DNA of 64,000 nucleotides from Methanobacteriota archaeon (lineage in GTDB: Archaea > Thermoplasmatota > E2 > DHVEG-1): positions 1 through 64,000 of the forward strand of contig CAVYNH010000005.1 in assembly GCA_963769885.1 (NCBI GenBank), read 5' to 3'. Below, one piece after another: positions 19,494 to 27,739 of this stretch (position 1 is its first letter; the number at the start of each line of letters is the position of its first letter). The position numbers and the translations under genes are program-made. The notes below the pieces were generated by a model that worked only from the letters and a program-made list of their open reading frames with translations, was not told the DNA's origin and made no database searches.

Positions 19494-20996
19494 TTAGGCA
19501 GCCTTCTGCAGAGACTGCAGGCGGGCCATGGAGGACTGGAGGGCTTCGTCCATGTCCGAAAATCCGATGCTCACCCAGCTCGAGCCGTCGTCGCGGAGGA
19601 GCTCCTCGAGCGGGAACCGGCCGTCCCAGGGTTCCCAGGACTGCTGCAGGGTCATCTCGCCGAGCACCCGGATGTTCGTCGCGCCGCAGGCGCCCATCGC
19701 CTTGGCAAAGGGAAGAAGGCGCGGAATCGGAATCGCCACCCCAATTGTCTGTAAGAACCGATGCAATGGCTTAACCAGCATCGGGATTTCTTCGAGATCA
19801 GCGATGGGTTTGACGGTGATCGCACGGAACTGGGGAGACGGCTCGACGGGATCCGTCGTCTCATCGTAGACGACGAGATATTCATGAGATTGCGGAGCGT
19901 ACAGGTGTACAAGGGCACCCAGTATCTGTTTTTTCAAGGCCTCCTGGTAGCCTTCGAGGATGCTGATCTTGCCTGTTTTGGCTCCTTTCGGTAAAATCGT
20001 CGCCATCGTCTGTAGTTCCCTGGCGAGGAGCTCAGCGAACTCCTTGGGGGAGGTCTTGGCTTTGTTTTCGACAAAGACGACCTGGGGAGAGAAGCACCCC
20101 TGCTGGTCCCAGGCGCTGACGTCAAGGGCCGCGAGGCGCGCCACGAGCTGAGCCTGATCGACGAGGTAGTCTCGTGCGATGGCGATGAAGCTGAATTTAT
20201 GCCAATGCCCGGCCAAGGGGGTTTTGCAGGATTCCGCGAGTTTCGTCAGACTATGCCGGGCGATCTCGCCGCCGGTGGCGCGGACGAGGTCGGAGCGGCG
20301 GAAGAGGTAGTCATGGAGGTCGGCCTGGGACGAGTCGAAGGGGAGGACGGCGATGGTGTGGGCGAGGTCCGGGTCGAGGCTTTCCAGGGATTGGGCGAAG
20401 AGGGCGGCGAAGACCGGCTCCTCGGTGGACGGCTTGATCCAGGTGGCGGCGTCGACGAGCTTGTCCATAATCATCTCGACGGCGGGGAGCCCGACGATGT
20501 TGCCGGCGCAGATGTGTCCGATGAGTTTGGGCTGGTCGTTAGCGTAGTATTCAGGGGTTTTCCCGGCGGCTTTCACGTAGCCGGTGCAGTATGGTGTGAA
20601 CTCGTGGTAGCGGCGGGGGTCGAGGCGTCCGGTGAGGGGGAGGTTGCGGGGGTTGAGGGTCTGGAGGAAGACGTTGAAGCCCCATTCTTCGATCATCTGG
20701 TGTGAGTAGCCGGTGATGGGGGGGAGGATGTCGTGGGCGAGGCGGCGCCAGGGGGAGTCGGGGTCGGTCCATTGGGTGATGAGGTCCATGACGGTGTCGA
20801 AGATGTCGGGGAGGCTGTGGGAGCAGAGGTAGTCGGTGCGGTGTTGTTCGAGGGTGGCGAGGATCGGGGTGAGGGTGTCAGGGGTGAGGATGGGGCGGCG
20901 GAGGGTGATGTGGTCGGTGATGTCGGCGTAGGTGTAGTTGAGGCTGTCACAGGTGAGGTCGGGGTCCCAGAAGTGGCAGTCGATGGTGGTGGTCAT
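19494..20996 (-). CDS. luxC: LuxC-family acyl-CoA/acyl-protein reductase
   Basis: ALDH-like fold: HICAGN, KPSTEEP, ATGGE, and catalytic Cys motif WDQQGCFSPQ (LuxC DQQACFS), LQTIG, PWDG. Confidence 0.85.
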   Translation of the reverse strand: MTTTIDCHFWDPDLTCDSLNYTYADITDHITLRRPILTPDTLTPILATLEQHRTDYLCSHSLPDIFDTVMDLITQWTDPDSPWRRLAHDILPPITGYSHQMIEEWGFNVFLQTLNPRNLPLTGRLDPRRYHEFTPYCTGYVKAAGKTPEYYANDQPKLIGHICAGNIVGLPAVEMIMDKLVDAATWIKPSTEEPVFAALFAQSLESLDPDLAHTIAVLPFDSSQADLHDYLFRRSDLVRATGGEIARHSLTKLAESCKTPLAGHWHKFSFIAIARDYLVDQAQLVARLAALDVSAWDQQGCFSPQVVFVENKAKTSPKEFAELLARELQTMATILPKGAKTGKISILEGYQEALKKQILGALVHLYAPQSHEYLVVYDETTDPVEPSPQFRAITVKPIADLEEIPMLVKPLHRFLQTIGVAIPIPRLLPFAKAMGACGATNIRVLGEMTLQQSWEPWDGRFPLEELLRDDGSSWVSIGFSDMDEALQSSMARLQSLQKAA

Positions 20997-21400
20997 TGGG
21001 TGTCCTCAAATTCCGTGGGGATGCGGGCGGCGGTGGTGACGAGTTCTTGGGCGGCGTGGGCGTAGTCTATGATCTTGCGGGAGTCGCCGGTGACGGTGAG
21101 GTAGCCGCGGACGATGGCGCGGAGGGGGTCGAGGGTGCCGAGGAGGATTTGTTTCCAGGTGGTGTAGGGGCCGGTGAGGGTGAAGTCCGTTTGTTGGTTG
21201 GTGGTGATGAGGCGGGCGTTGCGGCAGGTGCCATGCCAGAGGTCGAGGTAGATTTTGATTTCATGGGGGTAGGCGGTGTCGGGGGTGATGATGAAGAGGA
21301 AGTCGCCTTCCCAGTCTTTGGCTTTAGCTTTGTAGTCGGGGTTGTCGTTGAGGGCGTGTTGGAAGGCTTTGACCCAGGCGTCGCTGGGGAAGGGAATCAT
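20993..21400 (-). CDS. SCP2 sterol/lipid-binding domain protein (135 aa)
   Basis: MIPFPSDAWVKAFQHALN...WEGDF...LWHGTC...GPYTTWKQILLGTLDPLRAIVRGYLTVTGD. True start is 21400 (ATGA overlaps at both ends). Confidence 0.85.
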   Translation of the reverse strand: MIPFPSDAWVKAFQHALNDNPDYKAKAKDWEGDFLFIITPDTAYPHEIKIYLDLWHGTCRNARLITTNQQTDFTLTGPYTTWKQILLGTLDPLRAIVRGYLTVTGDSRKIIDYAHAAQELVTTAARIPTEFEDTQ

Positions 21401-22731
21401 TTGGTGTCCTCCATGAGTTCGGCCATGACGGCGGCGCAGCCGCGGCCTTCGGTGCCGGGGAGTCTGGTGACTTCGGTGTCGAGGACGGGGCCTTGGCGGT
21501 GGCAGGCGGGGCAGTGGTCGCGGAGGATGACTTGGTCGCCGGTGATGATGAAGCCGGGGTAGGTGGTGGGGAGGGGGTCGAGGAAGGCGAAGCGGCCGGG
21601 TTTGTCGGAGCCGAGGGGGGTGAGGGTGTCGTCGAGGACGAGGGGGTGGACGGTGGGGGGGATGTGTTTGTAGTGGCCGTCGCAGCTGAGGAAGACGCTG
21701 CTGCATTCGGACATGGCGTAGACGTCGTGGTAGTGGTGTTGGGGGATGCCGAGGGTGTCGTGGACTTTGGCGCGCAGCGCGGGTTCGGTGAGGCGTATGT
21801 TTTCTTCTGTTTTCCAGCCGCCGCCGGTGAGGATCTGGCCGTGGGGGAATTTAAGGTCGTGGCCGTCGTCGTGGATGCGGTCGAGGAGGCGGTTGAGCCA
21901 GAATGGAGGACCGGCGATGTTGACGTTTTGGCCGTGGTCTTGGAGCTGGTGGAGGATGGTGATCATGCGTTGGTCTGCGTGTTTTTGGATGAGGGGGCCC
22001 AGCGTGGTGAGGGCTTTGGCTTTGAGTTTTTCGCCGAGGCCGACGGCGTCGGCTTGTTGGAGGCGGAGGAGTTGGGTGGTGATCTGGGTGGTTTCCAAGG
22101 CGACGTTGACGTTGCCGGGGTAGAGGTCGTGGGCGATGCCGAAGAGGCTGGCGATGGTGAGGTTGGTGAGCTGGGGGTTGGGGATGAGGAGGAGGATGTG
22201 GTCGGTGGGTTGGTAGTCCATGAGTTCGATGACGCATTTCATGGCGCTGTATTTGACGCGGTTCCAGGATGTGCCGTCGCGGGGGACGAAGCTGAAGCGG
22301 CCGCTGGTGCCGCTGGTGAACATGATGTGGATGCCGAGTTTTTGGTAGGCGGCGATGACGTCGTCGTGGTTGGGATGCAGCCCAAGGGCGGGGGTGGGCA
22401 GGGTGGTGCTGGTGATGGCCTGCAGCCAGGTGGGGAACTTGGCGGCGGGGGGGTAGTCTTTGAAGAAGGTGTCAGGCAGGAGGGGGATCTTGCCGAGGTC
22501 GTCTGTGGTCTTGATCTGGTCGGGGGTGATGTGCTGGGCGTCGCAGAGGCGGTGGTAGAAGACGTTGTTGGTGTAGTGGTGCTGGAAGCTGTGGCGGATG
22601 GCGGGCAGGAGCCGGGCGTGGGCTGTGGCGTAGTCAGAGAAGTAGGCGTCGGTGCCGTAGAGAAGGGCGTCAACGGGGTCCCACGAGGCTGTGGGCGGGA
22701 TGAGCGGCTGGAGGCAGTCTAGGGTCGGCAC
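21397..22731 (-). CDS. luxE: LuxE-family acyl-protein synthetase
   Basis: IPLLPDTFFK, FTSGTSG adenylation loop, TGGGWK, DVYAMSE, PGFIITGD and C-terminal GRGC acyl-accepting Cys. Confidence 0.85.
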   Translation of the reverse strand: MPTLDCLQPLIPPTASWDPVDALLYGTDAYFSDYATAHARLLPAIRHSFQHHYTNNVFYHRLCDAQHITPDQIKTTDDLGKIPLLPDTFFKDYPPAAKFPTWLQAITSTTLPTPALGLHPNHDDVIAAYQKLGIHIMFTSGTSGRFSFVPRDGTSWNRVKYSAMKCVIELMDYQPTDHILLLIPNPQLTNLTIASLFGIAHDLYPGNVNVALETTQITTQLLRLQQADAVGLGEKLKAKALTTLGPLIQKHADQRMITILHQLQDHGQNVNIAGPPFWLNRLLDRIHDDGHDLKFPHGQILTGGGWKTEENIRLTEPALRAKVHDTLGIPQHHYHDVYAMSECSSVFLSCDGHYKHIPPTVHPLVLDDTLTPLGSDKPGRFAFLDPLPTTYPGFIITGDQVILRDHCPACHRQGPVLDTEVTRLPGTEGRGCAAVMAELMEDTK

Positions 22732-22736
22732 TGCGG

Positions 22737-24659
22737 TTATCCTCCGACGATCTGCTGGACGATGCCTTGGAGGGTGGCGAGCTCCTGGGGGGTGAGGCCT
22801 TTGGGGAGCGGGTAGAAGACGTGCTCCTTGCGGTGGAGGCCTTTGTGCATGACGTATTCCATGGGCAGGAGGTCGTCCAAGGTGAGCTCGGCGAAGAGAG
22901 ATTCGACGAGGCCACCGTTGAGCCGTTCGATGCTCTTGGGGTCGGTGTGGTCGTAATAGTAGTCATATTCGATGAAGGCGATCTTACCGTCGTCGGTGAA
23001 GCAGATGAACCCCAGGGCGTTATCGAGGCCGTACTTGTTTCCAATCTGCTTGAGGAGGTCGTGGACCGTCATGATGAGCTTTTTGTCTGCCCGCAGGTAG
23101 CCGCCGCGGTTGATGAACATCCGTTGGCGCATGATGCGGCTGGAGAGGATCCGGTGCTCGTGCAGCCAGATGGGGTCCGTCATCTCCGGCCGGGCGTACA
23201 GCTTCGTGAAGAAGTCGCGCAGCTCCGGCGGGAACGTCTTGGCAATCTGCTCCGGGGAGGCGTGCAAGGCCGCCACTAAGAGGTCTTTCAGGGGGCCGGC
23301 GAAGACCGCCTTCATGGGGTCATCCTCCTGCTGAATCGTCTTCAGCAGTGGGTTGTCCTTGAAGGCCGCCAGCGTCGGTGTGGACAGCAGCAGCGTCTTC
23401 AACATCGATGAGTCGATGACGACCGGCGCATGCTCGTCAATGTAGCTGCGGTCGCGGCTGTCACAGATAATGTCGACGAAGTAATTGGTTTTGAGATGGG
23501 TTGTGACGATGTACTCGAACTGCTTGGCGATCTCCTGGGTCGGGCAGGCGAAGTCGGAGAAGTACCGGCTGGAGAGAATCGCCAGGGACAGCCCGATGTT
23601 GCGCCGGGCGAGATCCATCGCTAACTCCAAGGCATCTTCGAGACGCTCATAGGGGACGAACACCGTCTGTTCCCCTTCATGGACTTGATGCAGTTTGATC
23701 GTCATCTCGGTGATAATATGCGAAGGCTTTATGGTCAGGGCGGTCATGCCGCGGGGCGACGCGTAGAGGTTACTGATAGCGGGGTCGCTAAACCGCAGGA
23801 GCTTGCCAGTCTGGTCGACAACCTGGGCGTCCGTGAAATGGTCCGCGCCCCACCCGTAGGTGTTGCCCCAGGTGGAGACGATGCCGAAGGTGGCGATGTT
23901 GACGCAGATGCCCGCCTCCGCCTCGCCGACGCACGCGCGAAGCCCATGCTTTGTGGCCGCCTGCTGCAGCTCAAACGCGGAGACGCCAGGCTGCACGACC
24001 GCGGTTTGCGTCACCGGGTCGACCTTGATGTCCTTCATGCGGTTCATGTCCAAGATAATGCCTATCCGCATCCCAGCCGGGTTTGCGAGAACCGTCTTAA
24101 TCGCCAAGGCGAAAAAGGTCCCGTTCGCTCGAGGCAGTACGGGGGTACTGTGGCGATGTGCGATAGCGACGACCTTGGCGACTTCCTCCGCGGTCCGCGG
24201 CATGGCCACGTACACGCCCTCGTAGGAATTTCCCAGATGAATGGTCTGAGTATAGGTACAGAGAATTGTCGGGTCGTTCGTCGCCCAATCAGGACCGACG
24301 GCGGCCTGCAGTTCTTTGAGCACTGCATCAAGCTTAGTCTCCGGTAGGGATTTCAGGTCGAGTTTCGAGGCATAGTCTTTCAGGGCTTTTTGGACGACTG
24401 TCGGCTGCAGGTTGTTCACGAAGCTGCACTGCTTGTCGCAGGCGCCGCACAGCGTGCACGAGTCGACGATCTGCTTGAGTCGCCTGGTCGGCGTAATCCG
24501 CTTGTCGCGAAGAGCCTTGAACAGCTCGTTACGCCCGCATGGCCAGTACGCATAATAGCCGTGCTGTGTGCCCGCCGGGCAGAGTCCTGTCCCCAGATAG
24601 TCGATTCTGCACATCCCGCAATGCGTAAACTTCTCTGAAACTGTTCCTGCTTCAGTCAT
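22737..24659 (-). CDS. 4Fe-4S dicluster plus FAD-binding (VAO/GlcD-type, FAD_binding_4) oxidoreductase
   Basis: CGMC...CP and CTLCGACDKQC. MPRTAEEVAKVV...PVLPR, LDMNRM, VVQPGV. Confidence 0.8.
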   Translation of the reverse strand: MTEAGTVSEKFTHCGMCRIDYLGTGLCPAGTQHGYYAYWPCGRNELFKALRDKRITPTRRLKQIVDSCTLCGACDKQCSFVNNLQPTVVQKALKDYASKLDLKSLPETKLDAVLKELQAAVGPDWATNDPTILCTYTQTIHLGNSYEGVYVAMPRTAEEVAKVVAIAHRHSTPVLPRANGTFFALAIKTVLANPAGMRIGIILDMNRMKDIKVDPVTQTAVVQPGVSAFELQQAATKHGLRACVGEAEAGICVNIATFGIVSTWGNTYGWGADHFTDAQVVDQTGKLLRFSDPAISNLYASPRGMTALTIKPSHIITEMTIKLHQVHEGEQTVFVPYERLEDALELAMDLARRNIGLSLAILSSRYFSDFACPTQEIAKQFEYIVTTHLKTNYFVDIICDSRDRSYIDEHAPVVIDSSMLKTLLLSTPTLAAFKDNPLLKTIQQEDDPMKAVFAGPLKDLLVAALHASPEQIAKTFPPELRDFFTKLYARPEMTDPIWLHEHRILSSRIMRQRMFINRGGYLRADKKLIMTVHDLLKQIGNKYGLDNALGFICFTDDGKIAFIEYDYYYDHTDPKSIERLNGGLVESLFAELTLDDLLPMEYVMHKGLHRKEHVFYPLPKGLTPQELATLQGIVQQIVGG

Positions 24660-24800
24660 ACAAATACCTTATTCCCCTGGAAAGGTTTGTAAATGTTCAT
24701 ACATGTAGTCCACATAAAGTTTTCGAGAGAACAAAGGAGACCTTCCGCATTGATTTTTTGTCGCGTCGAAAGAATCAAAAATGCTTTCTTCAAAAGAAGA

Positions 24801-25799
24801 TTATTGTTTAAAATCCATTTTTGGCAGCCATCGTTCTTTTTGAGTAACCGGGTCCACCCAGATGAGGTATTTCCTGATCGCATTCGGAAACGCGACCTCA
24901 AGGTCATCGATAAGCTTCGAGAGTTCATTATGGTCTTTCACATAGGCTTGAAACGACAAATCCCCCCAACCGACGTTCATGATTATAATGTCGTACACAT
25001 TCGGTTTTTCCTTCAGAAACCCCAAGATCATCGTCCTCATCGACTGGTTCTTTAAAAAAAGATTGACCGCAGTCTCCTGCAGCCCGAACTTCGTGGGATT
25101 GATGCCCACGCGGAACGCCTGGATGATGTTCTTCTCCCTCAGCCGCTTGATTCGGTACTGCATCGTCTGTGAGGACGAGTGGAACCGCTTCGCCAACTCA
25201 AGCAGCGGCATCCGCGCGTGCAAGACCAGGGCATCAAGGATCCGGTAATCAAGCTGATCGATTTGGACCCAGCTCCCCTCGCAACTCGTCTGATAGAACT
25301 CCCGGTCAGGGACAGGCTCATCGATTAAATACGATTTCTTACAGGCCATCACATGGGTCAGTATCGACACCGTGCTCTGGGCGAAATACTGGTCATACAA
25401 TTGAAGCGTGTTGATCCAGTACCGATTGAAGGCATAGACGTCCTTCACCCAAAGAACCACATCGAGATCCAAAGGCCCTTTCGACGTGATGACCGCCCAG
25501 GCGTCCTCGTTGTCCATAAAATATTTGATAATCTCCGATTTGACCTTCGGAGTGACATCGATGAAGTTGATGTAGACCCGAAACACGTAATACCCAAGCT
25601 TGAACGTGTTAATCGCAGTCCAATACCCAGTGATGATCCCCTCCTCTTCCATCCTTTTGATTCTATACGTGGTCACCTCTTTTGATAACCCGACCCTCCG
25701 GGCGATTTGCGCGTTGGATTGCCGGCAATTCAGGTCCAATTCATAGAGGATTTTCCTATCCTTGGCGTCCACATCAACCATGGGATCATCTCCCTTCAT
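24801..25799 (-). CDS. Tandem Lrp/AsnC-family transcriptional regulator
   Basis: Two AsnC wHTH units (DAKDRKILYELDLNCRQSNAQIAR and DQLDYRILDALVLHARMPLLELAK). Confidence 0.9.
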   Translation of the reverse strand: MKGDDPMVDVDAKDRKILYELDLNCRQSNAQIARRVGLSKEVTTYRIKRMEEEGIITGYWTAINTFKLGYYVFRVYINFIDVTPKVKSEIIKYFMDNEDAWAVITSKGPLDLDVVLWVKDVYAFNRYWINTLQLYDQYFAQSTVSILTHVMACKKSYLIDEPVPDREFYQTSCEGSWVQIDQLDYRILDALVLHARMPLLELAKRFHSSSQTMQYRIKRLREKNIIQAFRVGINPTKFGLQETAVNLFLKNQSMRTMILGFLKEKPNVYDIIIMNVGWGDLSFQAYVKDHNELSKLIDDLEVAFPNAIRKYLIWVDPVTQKERWLPKMDFKQ

Positions 25800-26410: not shown

Positions 26411-27739
26411 ATGAAAATACGGTTTTATCTATACCCGAGTAAATTTGACTATTTGATGAATATGAATGAAAGAAACGACACGACCAAAATGAAGGCTGGT
26501 GACCGCCCCCGGATGACCTGGCAAAAAACCGGACAAAGGCACCGAACAGTCCACAAGGCGTTCGCCCTCTTCACAATCGCACTTGTCATCACAATCCCAA
26601 CCATGTCAGTAACCGGCGAAACGCAACAAAACCAAGGAAAAACCATAAAATATTATGAATACAAAAACAACCTCTTCACCTACCGCGCAGAAATCCTCAG
26701 CAGCAACACCTCAACAATCACCCTCCGGGAAACATACTACAACTCAACAGCAAACATAAAAGTCTCCTTCACCAACACCTACAGCCTCAACGATAGAAAA
26801 TGCCTCAACCCCGCATCCGACAACTACCTCTGGATTTGGATCACACCCGCTGATCTCACAAAGGACTCCATCCAAGCAAGCGACAAAACACTCACTATCA
26901 CAGAGACCACACCAACCTATTACATCCTCACCTACCACGATGCAGCGGGAAACCAGGGATCGCTGTACTATAACCGCAACACCCTCATCCTGGAAAAAAC
27001 CATAGACCACGTCCAGGACAAATGCCTCTCAACCCAGCTCATCAGCACCGGCTTGACCACCGATGAAGGAACCAACACTCAAAACCCTGTCCAAGCCGGC
27101 CAAGTCAGTTCACCAAGCCCCGACATCCACACCCTCGGAACCACCACCTACTACCCACCTTATTACTCAGCGTACGGAGACAAATACTCCTACTCCGAAG
27201 GGCCGTGCAACGCGAGAGCTAGCTGGTCAGCCAGCTACACCACAGGAGCCCAATACAACTATTGCTGGGTCGACTCCTCAGGATTCCTCTCACGAGGCAT
27301 CGCGCAATCCTGGGCCTGGGTCACCGGCCCAAGCGGCGGCAAATTCTCCTGCACCAAGTCAGGCGCCTACCAGATTAAAATGCAGGTAAACCTCTACGGC
27401 GCAACCTACATGTTCATCATCAACGCAGGATGGGCAGGGACCGGCTACGCCGCAGGAAAAAACATCCTCTATGGATACCTTTATGACTACGACACCGGAT
27501 ACATCGCTGGGACCACAACCAACACCCTCTTCGACGGATCGGCCGTGCCCACAAACTACAGAGTCTGGAACAACGTGCCAGTCACCCTCACCTACAACGT
27601 GAACCTCTTCTCCGGACATCGCTATTACTTTAAGACATTGATTTACGGAGAATTCAGGGCGGGGTCGATCGGCATCGGAGGTGCACACTCAGAAACAGGC
27701 TTGACCGCCACGCTTCAAAACGTGAAAACCATCATCTAA
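26411..27739 (+). CDS. Secreted two-domain hypothetical protein (start probably at a downstream Met)
   Basis: Hydrophobic signal FALFTIALVITIPTMSV, a T/N/Q/P linker and a beta-rich C-terminal domain with Cys residues. Confidence 0.7.
   Translation: MKIRFYLYPSKFDYLMNMNERNDTTKMKAGDRPRMTWQKTGQRHRTVHKAFALFTIALVITIPTMSVTGETQQNQGKTIKYYEYKNNLFTYRAEILSSNTSTITLRETYYNSTANIKVSFTNTYSLNDRKCLNPASDNYLWIWITPADLTKDSIQASDKTLTITETTPTYYILTYHDAAGNQGSLYYNRNTLILEKTIDHVQDKCLSTQLISTGLTTDEGTNTQNPVQAGQVSSPSPDIHTLGTTTYYPPYYSAYGDKYSYSEGPCNARASWSASYTTGAQYNYCWVDSSGFLSRGIAQSWAWVTGPSGGKFSCTKSGAYQIKMQVNLYGATYMFIINAGWAGTGYAAGKNILYGYLYDYDTGYIAGTTTNTLFDGSAVPTNYRVWNNVPVTLTYNVNLFSGHRYYFKTLIYGEFRAGSIGIGGAHSETGLTATLQNVKTII

Follow-up and report, generated by a model that had tools for sequence, protein, structure and literature searches.

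We describe a widely conserved operon that joins genes for a LuxE-like synthetase and a LuxC-like reductase to an SCP2 gene and to a gene for an Fe-S flavoenzyme. The preliminary description of this DNA had presented the locus as a candidate new pathway, and a literature search returned no paper describing the operon. It lies in the 64,000-nucleotide stretch of DNA analysed here (hereafter the window), and the best reading of its four genes (Table 1) is a single transcription and translation unit encoding a soluble lipid-redox machine. An archaeal host had been expected, and this is borne out by the TFIIB encoded in the window and by the relatives of the cluster, which are without exception Thermoplasmatota MAGs. 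The host, whose genome of 2.09 Mb is 92% complete, is probably a sediment archaeon of the MBG-D group within the Thermoplasmatota, and the MBG-D single-cell genome SCGC AB-540-F20 belongs to the same family.

Table 1. Coordinates of the operon and its upstream region in the window.
Feature	Position	Strand	Size and character	Basis
Fe-S/VAO-type flavoprotein gene	22737..24659	(-)	640 aa	Pfam, orthologue alignment, AF2 model
LuxE-like acyl-adenylate/acyl-protein synthetase gene	21397..22731	(-)	444 aa, GTG start	PF04443 and 7XC6_E match
SCP2b gene	20993..21400	(-)	135 aa, sterol-carrier-protein-2 fold	PF02036 and profile match
LuxC-like acyl-thioester reductase gene	19494..20996	(-)	500 aa	PF05893 and AF2 model
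Intergenic region 5' of operon	24660..24800	(-)	141 nt	Sequence reading
Tandem Lrp/AsnC-type regulator gene	24801..25799	(-)	332 aa, two HTH_AsnC domains	Pfam

Direct reading of the minus strand reproduced the four co-oriented genes, the 5-nt gap and the two ATGA overlaps reported beforehand. The TAA of the flavoprotein gene is followed after 5 nt by the GTG of LuxE, and at both remaining junctions, which read ATGA, the start codon overlaps the preceding stop: the ATG of SCP2b that of LuxE, and the ATG of LuxC that of SCP2b. An SD-like GGAGG/GAGGA precedes all three junctions, the SD site of LuxE being located within the last codons of the flavoprotein gene. The intergenic region upstream of the operon contains a TATA-like CTTTAT around 55 nt from the flavoprotein ATG, and from its sequence we infer only a candidate promoter of the operon. 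The tandem Lrp/AsnC regulator, which had been linked to the operon by its position, does precede the flavoprotein gene at a distance of 141 nt, but it is not a conserved partner: in 34 plus 78 related loci it is not found next to the cluster, apart from L061 and L130, which have distant copies, and it is also missing beside the cluster of the closest relative (L055). The host genome encodes four further paralogues of this regulator, and whether it belongs to the system is doubtful.

The family searches proposed at the outset were all positive for the predicted proteins. LuxE scored 76.7 bits against PF04443 (gathering cut-off 24.9), LuxC 202.7 bits against PF05893 (cut-off 21), SCP2b 42.1 bits against PF02036 (cut-off 21.3) and the flavoprotein 72 bits against FAD_binding_4 (PF01565). 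LuxE also matches the LuxE chain of the LuxC-LuxE complex (7XC6_E) at E 6e-23, and its N-terminus resembles phenylacetate-CoA ligase. In that complex LuxE carries K238, R355 and Cys364, and LuxC a single essential cysteine, Cys296 (PMC9157457). The FTSGTSG, GRGC and DQQGCFSPQ motifs, earlier described as intact, align with the P-loop, Cys364 and Cys296 of 7XC6. In 24 LuxE orthologues the P-loop FTSGTSG, K307 (equivalent to K238), R423 (R355) and C432 (C364, within EGRGCAA) are invariant, as is C301 of LuxC in 33 orthologues. The AF2 model of LuxC (pLDDT 83) has 7XC6_A as its best match (Z 29.6, rmsd 3.1 over 414 aligned residues), above generic ALDHs at Z around 25. Both proteins fall far below the NCBIfam equivalog cut-offs for the lux-operon enzymes (LuxE, 97 bits versus 550 for NF052244; LuxC, 42.5 bits versus 750 for NF052251), and neither is therefore an orthologue of its myristate counterpart. 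Elsewhere, the LuxE/LuxC homologues EhpF/EhpG and ThnN/ThnO reduce non-fatty acids. The absence of luxA, luxB and luxD, previously noted for the window, extends to the whole 2.09-Mb genome, 92% complete, which has zero matches to PF00296 (Bac_luciferase) and PF02273 (LuxD); a bioluminescence system was rejected on these grounds.

SCP2b, the sole SCP2 gene of the host genome, matches the Thermus thermophilus SCP2 (2CX7/1WFR) in profile comparison at E 3e-26. A second SCP2 gene, SCP2a, follows the flavoprotein gene in the usual cluster and is missing from the subclade of the window; in relatives its product scores 21.5-28.3 bits against PF02036 (cut-off 21.3). The presence of two dedicated SCP2 proteins points to a hydrophobic ligand. 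Complex prediction for SCP2b with its partners gave a score of 0.43 (best control 0.00), with at least 89% of contacts agreeing between runs and a partner pLDDT of at least 81, and the score dropped to 0.00 when LuxC was replaced. Of 80 solved complexes, 58 reached the mark used here, as did 2 of 110 mismatched pairs; only 7 of the 80, but both mismatches, did so at a score of 0.60 or under. The prediction weakly suggests that SCP2b may dock on LuxE/LuxC and, as weakly, that SCP2 could be a stand-in for LuxD.

The flavoprotein begins with a putative HdrC-like ferredoxin domain (about residues 1-107) and ends with a divergent cap domain (about residues 340-640). Seven cysteines (14, 17, 27, 68, 71, 74 and 78) are all invariant in an alignment of 25 orthologues; the second Fe-S motif (C68, C71, C74, C78) is complete, and the first (C14, C17, C27-P, plus invariant H13 and D20) is degenerate. 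The Pfam score against Fer4_8 is 24 bits, under the 27-bit cut-off, and many orthologues have a precomputed PF13183 match. In the AF2 model (pLDDT 80), residues 108-640 adopt the full VAO two-domain fold with Z 18-19. The best fold matches are 4-alkylphenol oxidases and p-cresol methylhydroxylase, tied with D-lactate dehydrogenase (D-LDH), and because of the structural tie between 4-alkylphenol oxidases and D-LDH we make no subfamily assignment. The sequence profile aligns over the FAD domain only, with LctD as the best match (E 3e-17), and for the cap domain Pfam and profile searches gave no sequence match and no PF02913 (FAD-oxidase_C) match. The flavoprotein is a member of the VAO/PCMH superfamily that could be placed in none of its subfamilies. 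Two identities were considered and are not supported: the GlcD/D-2-hydroxyacid dehydrogenase subfamily, on the missing PF02913, a TIGR00387 score of 47.7 bits versus 567.9 and an alignment restricted to the FAD domain; and AGPS, whose alignment is limited to the FAD domain (profile positions 160-364) and whose catalytic His-His-His loop has no counterpart among the invariant columns of the orthologue alignment.

A synteny survey confirmed the expected conservation of the four-gene order, with the sequence flavoprotein-(SCP2a)-LuxE-SCP2b-LuxC kept in 34 species-representative genomes and around 40 metagenome contigs, all confined to one Thermoplasmatota family. Protein identity across these clusters is 45-60%, and a gene order kept at about 50% identity in dozens of genomes and contigs is far beyond chance. 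The four-gene cluster is as described in the window, but the usual cluster has five genes, the additional one being the SCP2 gene after the flavoprotein. The LuxC clade of the window is set apart by a large score gap (513 versus 226 bits), its nearest outgroups (L039 and L042) being plain LuxE-LuxC pairs on archaeal-looking contigs; luciferase-free LuxE-LuxC pairs as such are not unusual. Among 108 genomes of the family, 36 have both LuxC and the flavoprotein, five the flavoprotein only, and none LuxC only. LuxC is single-copy, and the flavoprotein is multi-copy, occurs in tandem arrays and is also found without LuxE/LuxC; in at least 14 sufficiently flanked loci it stands by itself. In some relatives its neighbour is a Cys-rich membrane protein of divergent sequence. 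As a module present in several copies, the flavoprotein is thus partly independent of LuxE/LuxC.

The most economical reading is that the operon encodes a carboxylic-acid-to-aldehyde machine for a hydrophobic ligand. This was the proposal of the preliminary description, which we retain, with genes, motifs and operon as claimed there; we infer that the substrate is a long-chain fatty or isoprenoid acid and that the chemistry runs reductively, and likewise where the flavoprotein step falls in the order and that SCP2 docks. We give about an even chance to the full scheme, in which LuxE and LuxC relay a hydrophobic acid or aldehyde as a thioester, with SCP2 as helper and the Fe-S flavoprotein as redox partner. 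In this relay, proposed by analogy with the LuxC-LuxE fatty-acid reductase of luminous bacteria, LuxE would adenylate the hydrophobic carboxylic acid and then form a thioester on its own C-terminal Cys432, the acyl group would move to Cys301 of LuxC, and reduction with NAD(P)H would yield the aldehyde. SCP2b, translationally coupled to LuxE and LuxC, would sit on the complex and hold the greasy acid or aldehyde, taking the part played in lux by LuxD and acyl carrier protein (ACP). The flavoprotein would carry out a two-electron step at the alcohol/aldehyde level on the same carbon skeleton, with its own SCP2a in most relatives. It would exchange electrons via the HdrC-like Fe-S domain, the partner being ferredoxin or, in certain relatives, the Cys-rich membrane protein. 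The host handles acyl substrates, since its genome contains pairs of acyl-CoA ligase and acyl-CoA dehydrogenase.

Several points run against this scheme, among them the low equivalog scores of LuxE and LuxC, the non-fatty acids reduced by their homologues elsewhere and the weakness of the complex prediction. A multi-copy flavoprotein that also occurs without LuxE/LuxC is no less compatible with a position before a shared LuxCE step than with one after it, and it is hard to see what an energy-limited archaeon with isoprenoid membranes would gain from making aldehydes at the cost of ATP and NADPH.

The system could run the opposite way, which we consider unlikely. Flavoprotein paralogues assisted by SCP2a would turn long-chain or isoprenoid alcohols of the sediment, such as wax alcohols and phytol, into aldehydes, LuxC would convert these with NAD(P)+ to the acyl-thioester, and LuxE would free the acid via acyl-AMP, generating ATP from AMP and PPi; or the acyl group would pass to CoA and beta-oxidation. 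The asymmetric distribution, with the flavoprotein (and SCP2a) multi-copy, in tandem and sometimes alone, and LuxC single-copy and never without it, is what several feeder dehydrogenases supplying a single later step would produce. A dehydrogenase would suit the Fe-S exit domain and the divergent Cys-rich membrane protein of relatives, alcohol oxidation is typical of VAO-family enzymes, the acyl-CoA ligase/dehydrogenase pairs agree with such a route, and both half-reactions of adenylate-forming enzymes are reversible. However, we know of no LuxCE system running in reverse, the net free energy would be near zero with a supply of PPi needed, and a CoA-acylating ALDH would be a simpler route. The cleft of LuxC has moreover been proposed to block re-oxidation of the aldehyde (PMC9157457), which argues against this direction. 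Less probable again is its ACP-independent, energy-conserving form, a lipid oxidation funnel in which several SCP2-escorted flavoprotein paralogues would convert insoluble plant-wax or isoprenoid alcohols of the sediment to aldehydes and a reversed LuxC-LuxE, by way of an acyl-enzyme and acyl-AMP, would store the energy of aldehyde oxidation as ATP made from AMP and PPi; if true, it would be a new type of substrate-level phosphorylation in very abundant uncultured sediment archaea.

A hydrophobic aromatic or prenylated-phenolic (quinone-like) acid has a low probability as the substrate; LuxE/LuxC would then reduce its carboxyl and the flavoprotein would be a 4-alkylphenol-type dehydrogenase acting on the benzylic alcohol or aldehyde. 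The likeness of the LuxE N-terminus to phenylacetate-CoA ligase speaks for it, and so do the SCP2 proteins UbiJ/UbiT, which escort prenyl-quinone intermediates. The top fold matches of the flavoprotein, 4-alkylphenol oxidases and p-cresol methylhydroxylase, favour it as well, although their tie with D-LDH gives no subfamily and the cap domain, where the phenolate-binding Tyr/Tyr/Arg triad would lie, has no sequence alignment. Against it, the host genome has no MqnA/MqnD matches and a single UbiD, as expected for archaeal mevalonate metabolism. The ether-lipid pathway raised in the preliminary description, in which a fatty aldehyde or alcohol from LuxE/LuxC would be built into alkyl ethers by the flavoprotein as an alkyl-DHAP-synthase analogue, is highly improbable and not supported. 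The domain families are those of the peroxisomal FAR/AGPS/SCP2 set, and AGPS is among the distant VAO matches of the flavoprotein; but AGPS catalyses no net redox change and needs no Fe-S domain such as the predicted electron-transfer domain of the flavoprotein, the conserved His triplet and FAD-oxidase_C are absent, the AGPS alignment is confined to the FAD domain, and the cluster has no alcohol-forming step or acyl-DHAP enzyme. We find it just as improbable that the flavoprotein and LuxE-SCP2-LuxC are functionally independent modules, merely often adjacent. The lone flavoproteins in at least 14 well-flanked loci and in five genomes without LuxC would fit such independence, but the 5-nt gap in the window with its SD site inside the last flavoprotein codons, the persistence of the flavoprotein-LuxE/LuxC adjacency across deep paralogue clades and the flavoprotein in 36 of 36 LuxC-positive genomes argue for a joint function.

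In anoxic sediments, MBG-D archaea (Thermoprofundales) rank with the most common archaea, and protein degradation is the main activity attributed to them. A conserved, strongly coupled operon for a hydrophobic acid or aldehyde would imply either a part for MBG-D in the turnover of sedimentary lipids or a lipid product, in both cases hitherto unrecognised, and is relevant to whether archaea have fatty-acid-type chemistry. It would also represent a naturally occurring LuxCE variant that comes with its own lipid carrier, together with an Fe-S-linked VAO flavoenzyme whose cap domain has no characterised relative.

The closest characterised system is the LuxC-LuxE complex of Photobacterium phosphoreum (7XC6; PMC9157457), with which the operon has in common an adenylating LuxE and its C-terminal acyl-Cys loop. 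The LuxC described here is only 19% identical to that of 7XC6, though its fold is closest to 7XC6_A, and LuxE has a divergent N-terminal half and exceeds its counterpart by around 70 residues. Compared with the lux operons of luminous bacteria, this archaeal operon has an SCP2 gene separating luxE from luxC, couples the pair to an Fe-S flavoprotein and lacks luxA, luxB and luxD. Plain LuxE-LuxC pairs of other archaea and bacteria, here the outgroup loci L039 and L042, likewise have adjacent LuxE and LuxC without a luciferase, but they are only 30-35% identical and have neither an intervening SCP2 nor a nearby Fe-S flavoprotein. The flavoprotein shares the VAO fold and a recognised FAD-binding domain with GlcD/D-lactate dehydrogenase/LctD, eugenol oxidase and p-cresol methylhydroxylase; its putative HdrC-like ferredoxin domain is fused at the N-terminus, whereas the carrier of GlcDEF and PCMH is a separate Fe-S or cytochrome subunit. 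Peroxisomal FAR1, AGPS (2UUU, 4BBY) and SCP2 similarly combine a thioester reductase, a VAO-family flavoprotein and an SCP2 carrier. In the operon, by contrast, the reductase is of the LuxC/ALDH type (FAR1 is an SDR), AGPS signatures are missing from the flavoprotein, which carries an Fe-S domain, and there is no alcohol-forming step and no DHAP enzyme. SCP2b is a stand-alone SCP2 like Thermus thermophilus TT1886 (2CX7/1WFR). It also resembles UbiJ/UbiT in being encoded by a small SCP2 gene within an enzyme operon, presumably presenting a hydrophobic intermediate, with LuxE/LuxC and the flavoprotein as its partners in place of the Ubi enzymes.

Four co-oriented genes on the minus strand encode a Fe-S/VAO-type flavoprotein, a LuxE homologue, an SCP2 protein (SCP2b) and a LuxC homologue. 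Their junctions were read directly from the sequence as TAA-CCGCA-GTG, ATGA and ATGA, that is, the 5-nt gap and the two overlaps of the preliminary description, with GGAGG or GAGGA ahead of each internal start, and the genes form a translationally coupled operon. Every domain family proposed in that description was confirmed by Pfam, and its archaeal host is borne out by a TFIIB gene in the window and by the records of the relatives. Across a 600-nt AT-rich spacer from the Lrp gene lies a divergent ORF of 442 aa, which matches no Pfam or NCBIfam family and does not accompany the cluster in other loci.

Coordinates of the operon genes and of further features in the same genome and in related loci
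Feature	Location	Strand	Assignment
Tandem Lrp/AsnC regulator	window 24801-25799	-	Pfam, 2x HTH_AsnC
Flavoprotein, 640 aa	window 22737-24659	-	Pfam FAD_binding_4, 72 bits
LuxE homologue, 444 aa, GTG start	window 21397-22731	-	Pfam LuxE, 77 bits
SCP2 protein (SCP2b), 135 aa	window 20993-21400	-	Pfam SCP2, 42 bits
LuxC homologue, 500 aa	window 19494-20996	-	Pfam LuxC, 203 bits
ORF, 442 aa	window 26411-27739	+	
Orphan LuxE paralogue, 459 aa	own genome, C6:88850-90229	+	PF04443, 77.6 bits
Acyl-CoA ligase and acyl-CoA dehydrogenase pairs	own genome, C7:217601-219294; C7:295836-297552		AMP-binding ligase; acyl-CoA dehydrogenase
Cys-rich membrane protein, 233 aa	L071:4184-4885	-	
Membrane protein after flavoprotein	L130:6928-7563	+	DUF998
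Decayed cluster	L011:5484-7588 (CP070798.1)		

Measured in 2-kb windows, the GC content of the stretch ranges between 0.42 and 0.63, and there is a strong strand-linked GC skew. With a GC of 0.614 and a GC3 of 0.80-0.87 the operon stands at the top of the range of its genome (mean 0.543 in 4-kb windows, 99th percentile 0.62); the adjacent Lrp gene has a GC of 0.49. The sole genome of the same genus is without the cluster and this absence, together with the GC relative to the genome mean, is at most suggestive of horizontal transfer. The sequencing runs carrying 0.23-0.34 of the sampled words were DNA runs only, labelled as freshwater sediment or wetland.

Scanning one genome per prokaryote species for LuxC gave 34 loci, sharing 50-59% LuxC identity and located in Thermoplasmatota MAGs, apart from two short contigs from Peregrinibacteria and Petrotogales bins that we regard as mis-binned. 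The order flavoprotein-LuxE-SCP2-LuxC described for the window is kept at every locus whose contig extends far enough. Most relatives harbor a second SCP2-like gene between the flavoprotein and LuxE (SCP2a; 135 aa, PF02036 21-28 bits), and therefore the canonical unit consists of five genes: the four-gene set holds for the window but not for the relatives in general. SCP2a is missing from the window, from its 81% identical relative L055 and from L013, and the genome of the window has no SCP2 gene besides SCP2b; one or two dedicated SCP2 proteins go with the cluster. Beyond the five-gene unit the neighbours showed genus-level synteny only (e.g. a P-type ATPase) and gave no functional hint. The Lrp/AsnC protein does adjoin the operon in the window, but its gene is not kept beside the cluster in related loci, and it was therefore rejected as a dedicated regulator. 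Decayed forms of the cluster occur as well: in one complete genome (L011) signalling genes have truncated LuxE to its last 96 residues, which abut a response-regulator/PAS/DUF835 gene. There SCP2b and LuxC remain intact, with the flavoprotein some 0.7 Mb distant.

In a sample of 401 genomes of the phylum, LuxC was found in 15 of the 53 genomes of the window's own GTDB family and in 0 of about 347 elsewhere. This family holds 'Thermoplasmatales archaeon SM1-50' and the single-cell genome SCGC AB-540-F20, which we take to be MBG-D/Thermoprofundales. An exhaustive representative search shows the LuxC clade to be isolated (513 bits for its own cluster, 226 bits and 35% identity for the next match), and the outgroups closest to it are simple LuxE-LuxC pairs lacking both SCP2 and flavoprotein.

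Among 108 genomes of the family, which are kin, so that the counts are descriptive and carry no statistical test, 36 encode both LuxC and the flavoprotein, 5 the flavoprotein only and 0 LuxC only; LuxC is single-copy, and the flavoprotein reaches up to five matches per genome. LuxC is obligatorily associated with the Fe-S/VAO flavoprotein. The flavoprotein itself is a semi-independent module. Of the 78 loci that its alignment retrieved in a metagenome scan, about 40 run on into LuxE-SCP2b-LuxC, at least 14 have enough flank but lack these genes, and some show tandem flavoprotein-SCP2a repeats. In its tree the paralogues fall into several clades of mixed gene context, and the window protein groups with those of L055 and L056 beside a clade with a membrane protein and no LuxE. 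This Cys-rich membrane protein of 233 aa is transcribed divergently from a position directly upstream of the flavoprotein in one paralogue clade, at L071 and also at L074, L080, L068, L061, L065, L066, L123, L009, L032, L060 and L062; neither Pfam nor NCBIfam places it in a family, the genome of the window lacks it, and it may be a membrane electron partner of the flavoprotein. At L130 a DUF998 membrane protein follows the flavoprotein in place of SCP2a. An Atlas feature search suggested that look-alike clusters may exist in Thermodesulfobacteriota; all sequences from the protein search and the metagenome scan were of Thermoplasmatota type, with identities of at least 45%.

In the flavoprotein model (AF2, pLDDT 80), residues 1-107 form a helical Cys-rich N-terminal domain, and residues 108-640 adopt the full two-domain VAO fold. 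Although the N-terminal Fer4_8 match is below threshold (24 against 27 bits), 25 orthologues share, without variation, C14, C17, C27, C68, C71, C74 and C78 as well as H13 and D20, and many orthologues have a precomputed PF13183 match. The top fold matches (Foldseek, VIA-align) are 4-alkylphenol oxidases and p-cresol methylhydroxylase, with Z up to 19.1; mammalian D-lactate dehydrogenase ties with these at Z 18.5, and alkyl-DHAP synthase (AGPS) and others score lower. In the sequence profile the FAD domain alone aligns (LctD best, E 3e-17), the cap domain (approximately residues 340-640) having no match among solved structures, and Pfam did not find FAD-oxidase_C. The protein, the sole FAD_binding_4 member of its genome, fits no one VAO subfamily. 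Besides the flavoprotein's own cluster, an Atlas fold search matched only a cluster of 314-aa bacterial proteins without a functional name (commonest phylum Aminicenantota), which covers the cap domain alone (residues 329-622, TM 0.81) and might represent this domain in split or stand-alone form.

The catalytic motifs reported earlier for LuxE and LuxC are intact. Aligned to the LuxC-LuxE complex of Photobacterium phosphoreum (7XC6), the Cys of the LuxC motif DQQGCFSP(Q) corresponds to Cys296, and in LuxE the GGGWK lysine, the VTRL arginine and the GRGC cysteine correspond to K238, R355 and the acyl-accepting Cys364 (PMC9157457). These residues and the FTSGTSG P-loop are invariant across 24-33 orthologues, and the pair looks like a catalytically intact thioester relay. 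The LuxC model (AF2, pLDDT 83) has the LuxC chain 7XC6_A as its top structural match (Z 29.6, rmsd 3.1, 414 residues); generic aldehyde dehydrogenases score four Z units lower. Both proteins score far under the NCBIfam equivalog cut-offs: they are members of the LuxE and LuxC families but not orthologous to the myristate enzymes. The assembly, 92% complete with 2.09 Mb in 7 contigs, encodes one LuxC and has no Bac_luciferase or LuxD match, which extends to the whole genome what had been noted for the window. It also carries an orphan LuxE paralogue, 37% identical to the operon LuxE, with no LuxC, SCP2 or flavoprotein nearby.

Taken together, the coupled operon, the intact LuxC-LuxE relay, the SCP2 proteins and the association with the flavoprotein point to a machine for hydrophobic acids and aldehydes, which would interconvert a carboxylic acid and the corresponding aldehyde and carry out one more two-electron step on the same molecule. 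Our main reading, to which we give about an even chance, is the reductive direction, from acid to aldehyde with ATP and NAD(P)H, to our knowledge the sole one demonstrated for this enzyme family. An oxidative funnel from alcohol through aldehyde to acid, possibly conserving energy via LuxE reversal, is the main rival; we judge it rather improbable, and it fits the asymmetry between single-copy LuxC and multi-copy flavoprotein, the presence of an Fe-S exit domain and the relatives' membrane partner at least as well as reduction does. An aromatic or prenyl-phenolic substrate is similarly doubtful: the genome has no MqnA or MqnD, yet it contains pairs of acyl-CoA ligase and acyl-CoA dehydrogenase, and the organism should therefore have some capacity for acyl-CoA oxidation.

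An ether-lipid pathway, one of the possibilities raised in the preliminary description, is very unlikely. The flavoprotein fails the AGPS features that could be examined, only its FAD domain aligning, and its fusion to a ferredoxin-like domain implies a net transfer of electrons, which is foreign to AGPS. Equally hard to credit is that the flavoprotein and LuxE-SCP2-LuxC are mere neighbours; loci with the flavoprotein alone do exist, and all 36 LuxC-bearing genomes among the 108 of the family also encode it.

Our literature search found no paper on LuxE or LuxC in Thermoplasmatota or on this gene combination. The single parts are known kinds of protein; what is new is their combination, the second SCP2, the archaeal host and a VAO enzyme that is fused to an Fe-S domain and whose cap domain lacks a match.

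SCP2b resembles the stand-alone SCP2 whose structure has been solved from Thermus thermophilus (E 3e-26); a literature search on the latter gave no information on its context. Predicting LuxE (18-444), LuxC (31-468) and SCP2b as a three-chain complex with purpose-built alignments gave SCP2b a docking score of 0.43, against 0.00 for the best control and 0.00 when LuxC was replaced, with contact agreement between runs of at least 89% and partner pLDDT of at least 81. Of 80 solved complexes 58 reached the docking mark, as did 2 of 110 mismatched pairs; only 7 of the 80, but both mismatches, did so at scores of 0.60 or less. The structure prediction supports docking of SCP2b on LuxC-LuxE weakly, as a hint rather than as proof that they bind. 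For LuxD of the lux system, docking at the entrance by which substrate reaches LuxC-LuxE has been proposed (PMC6279958); it is plausible that here SCP2 takes this role.
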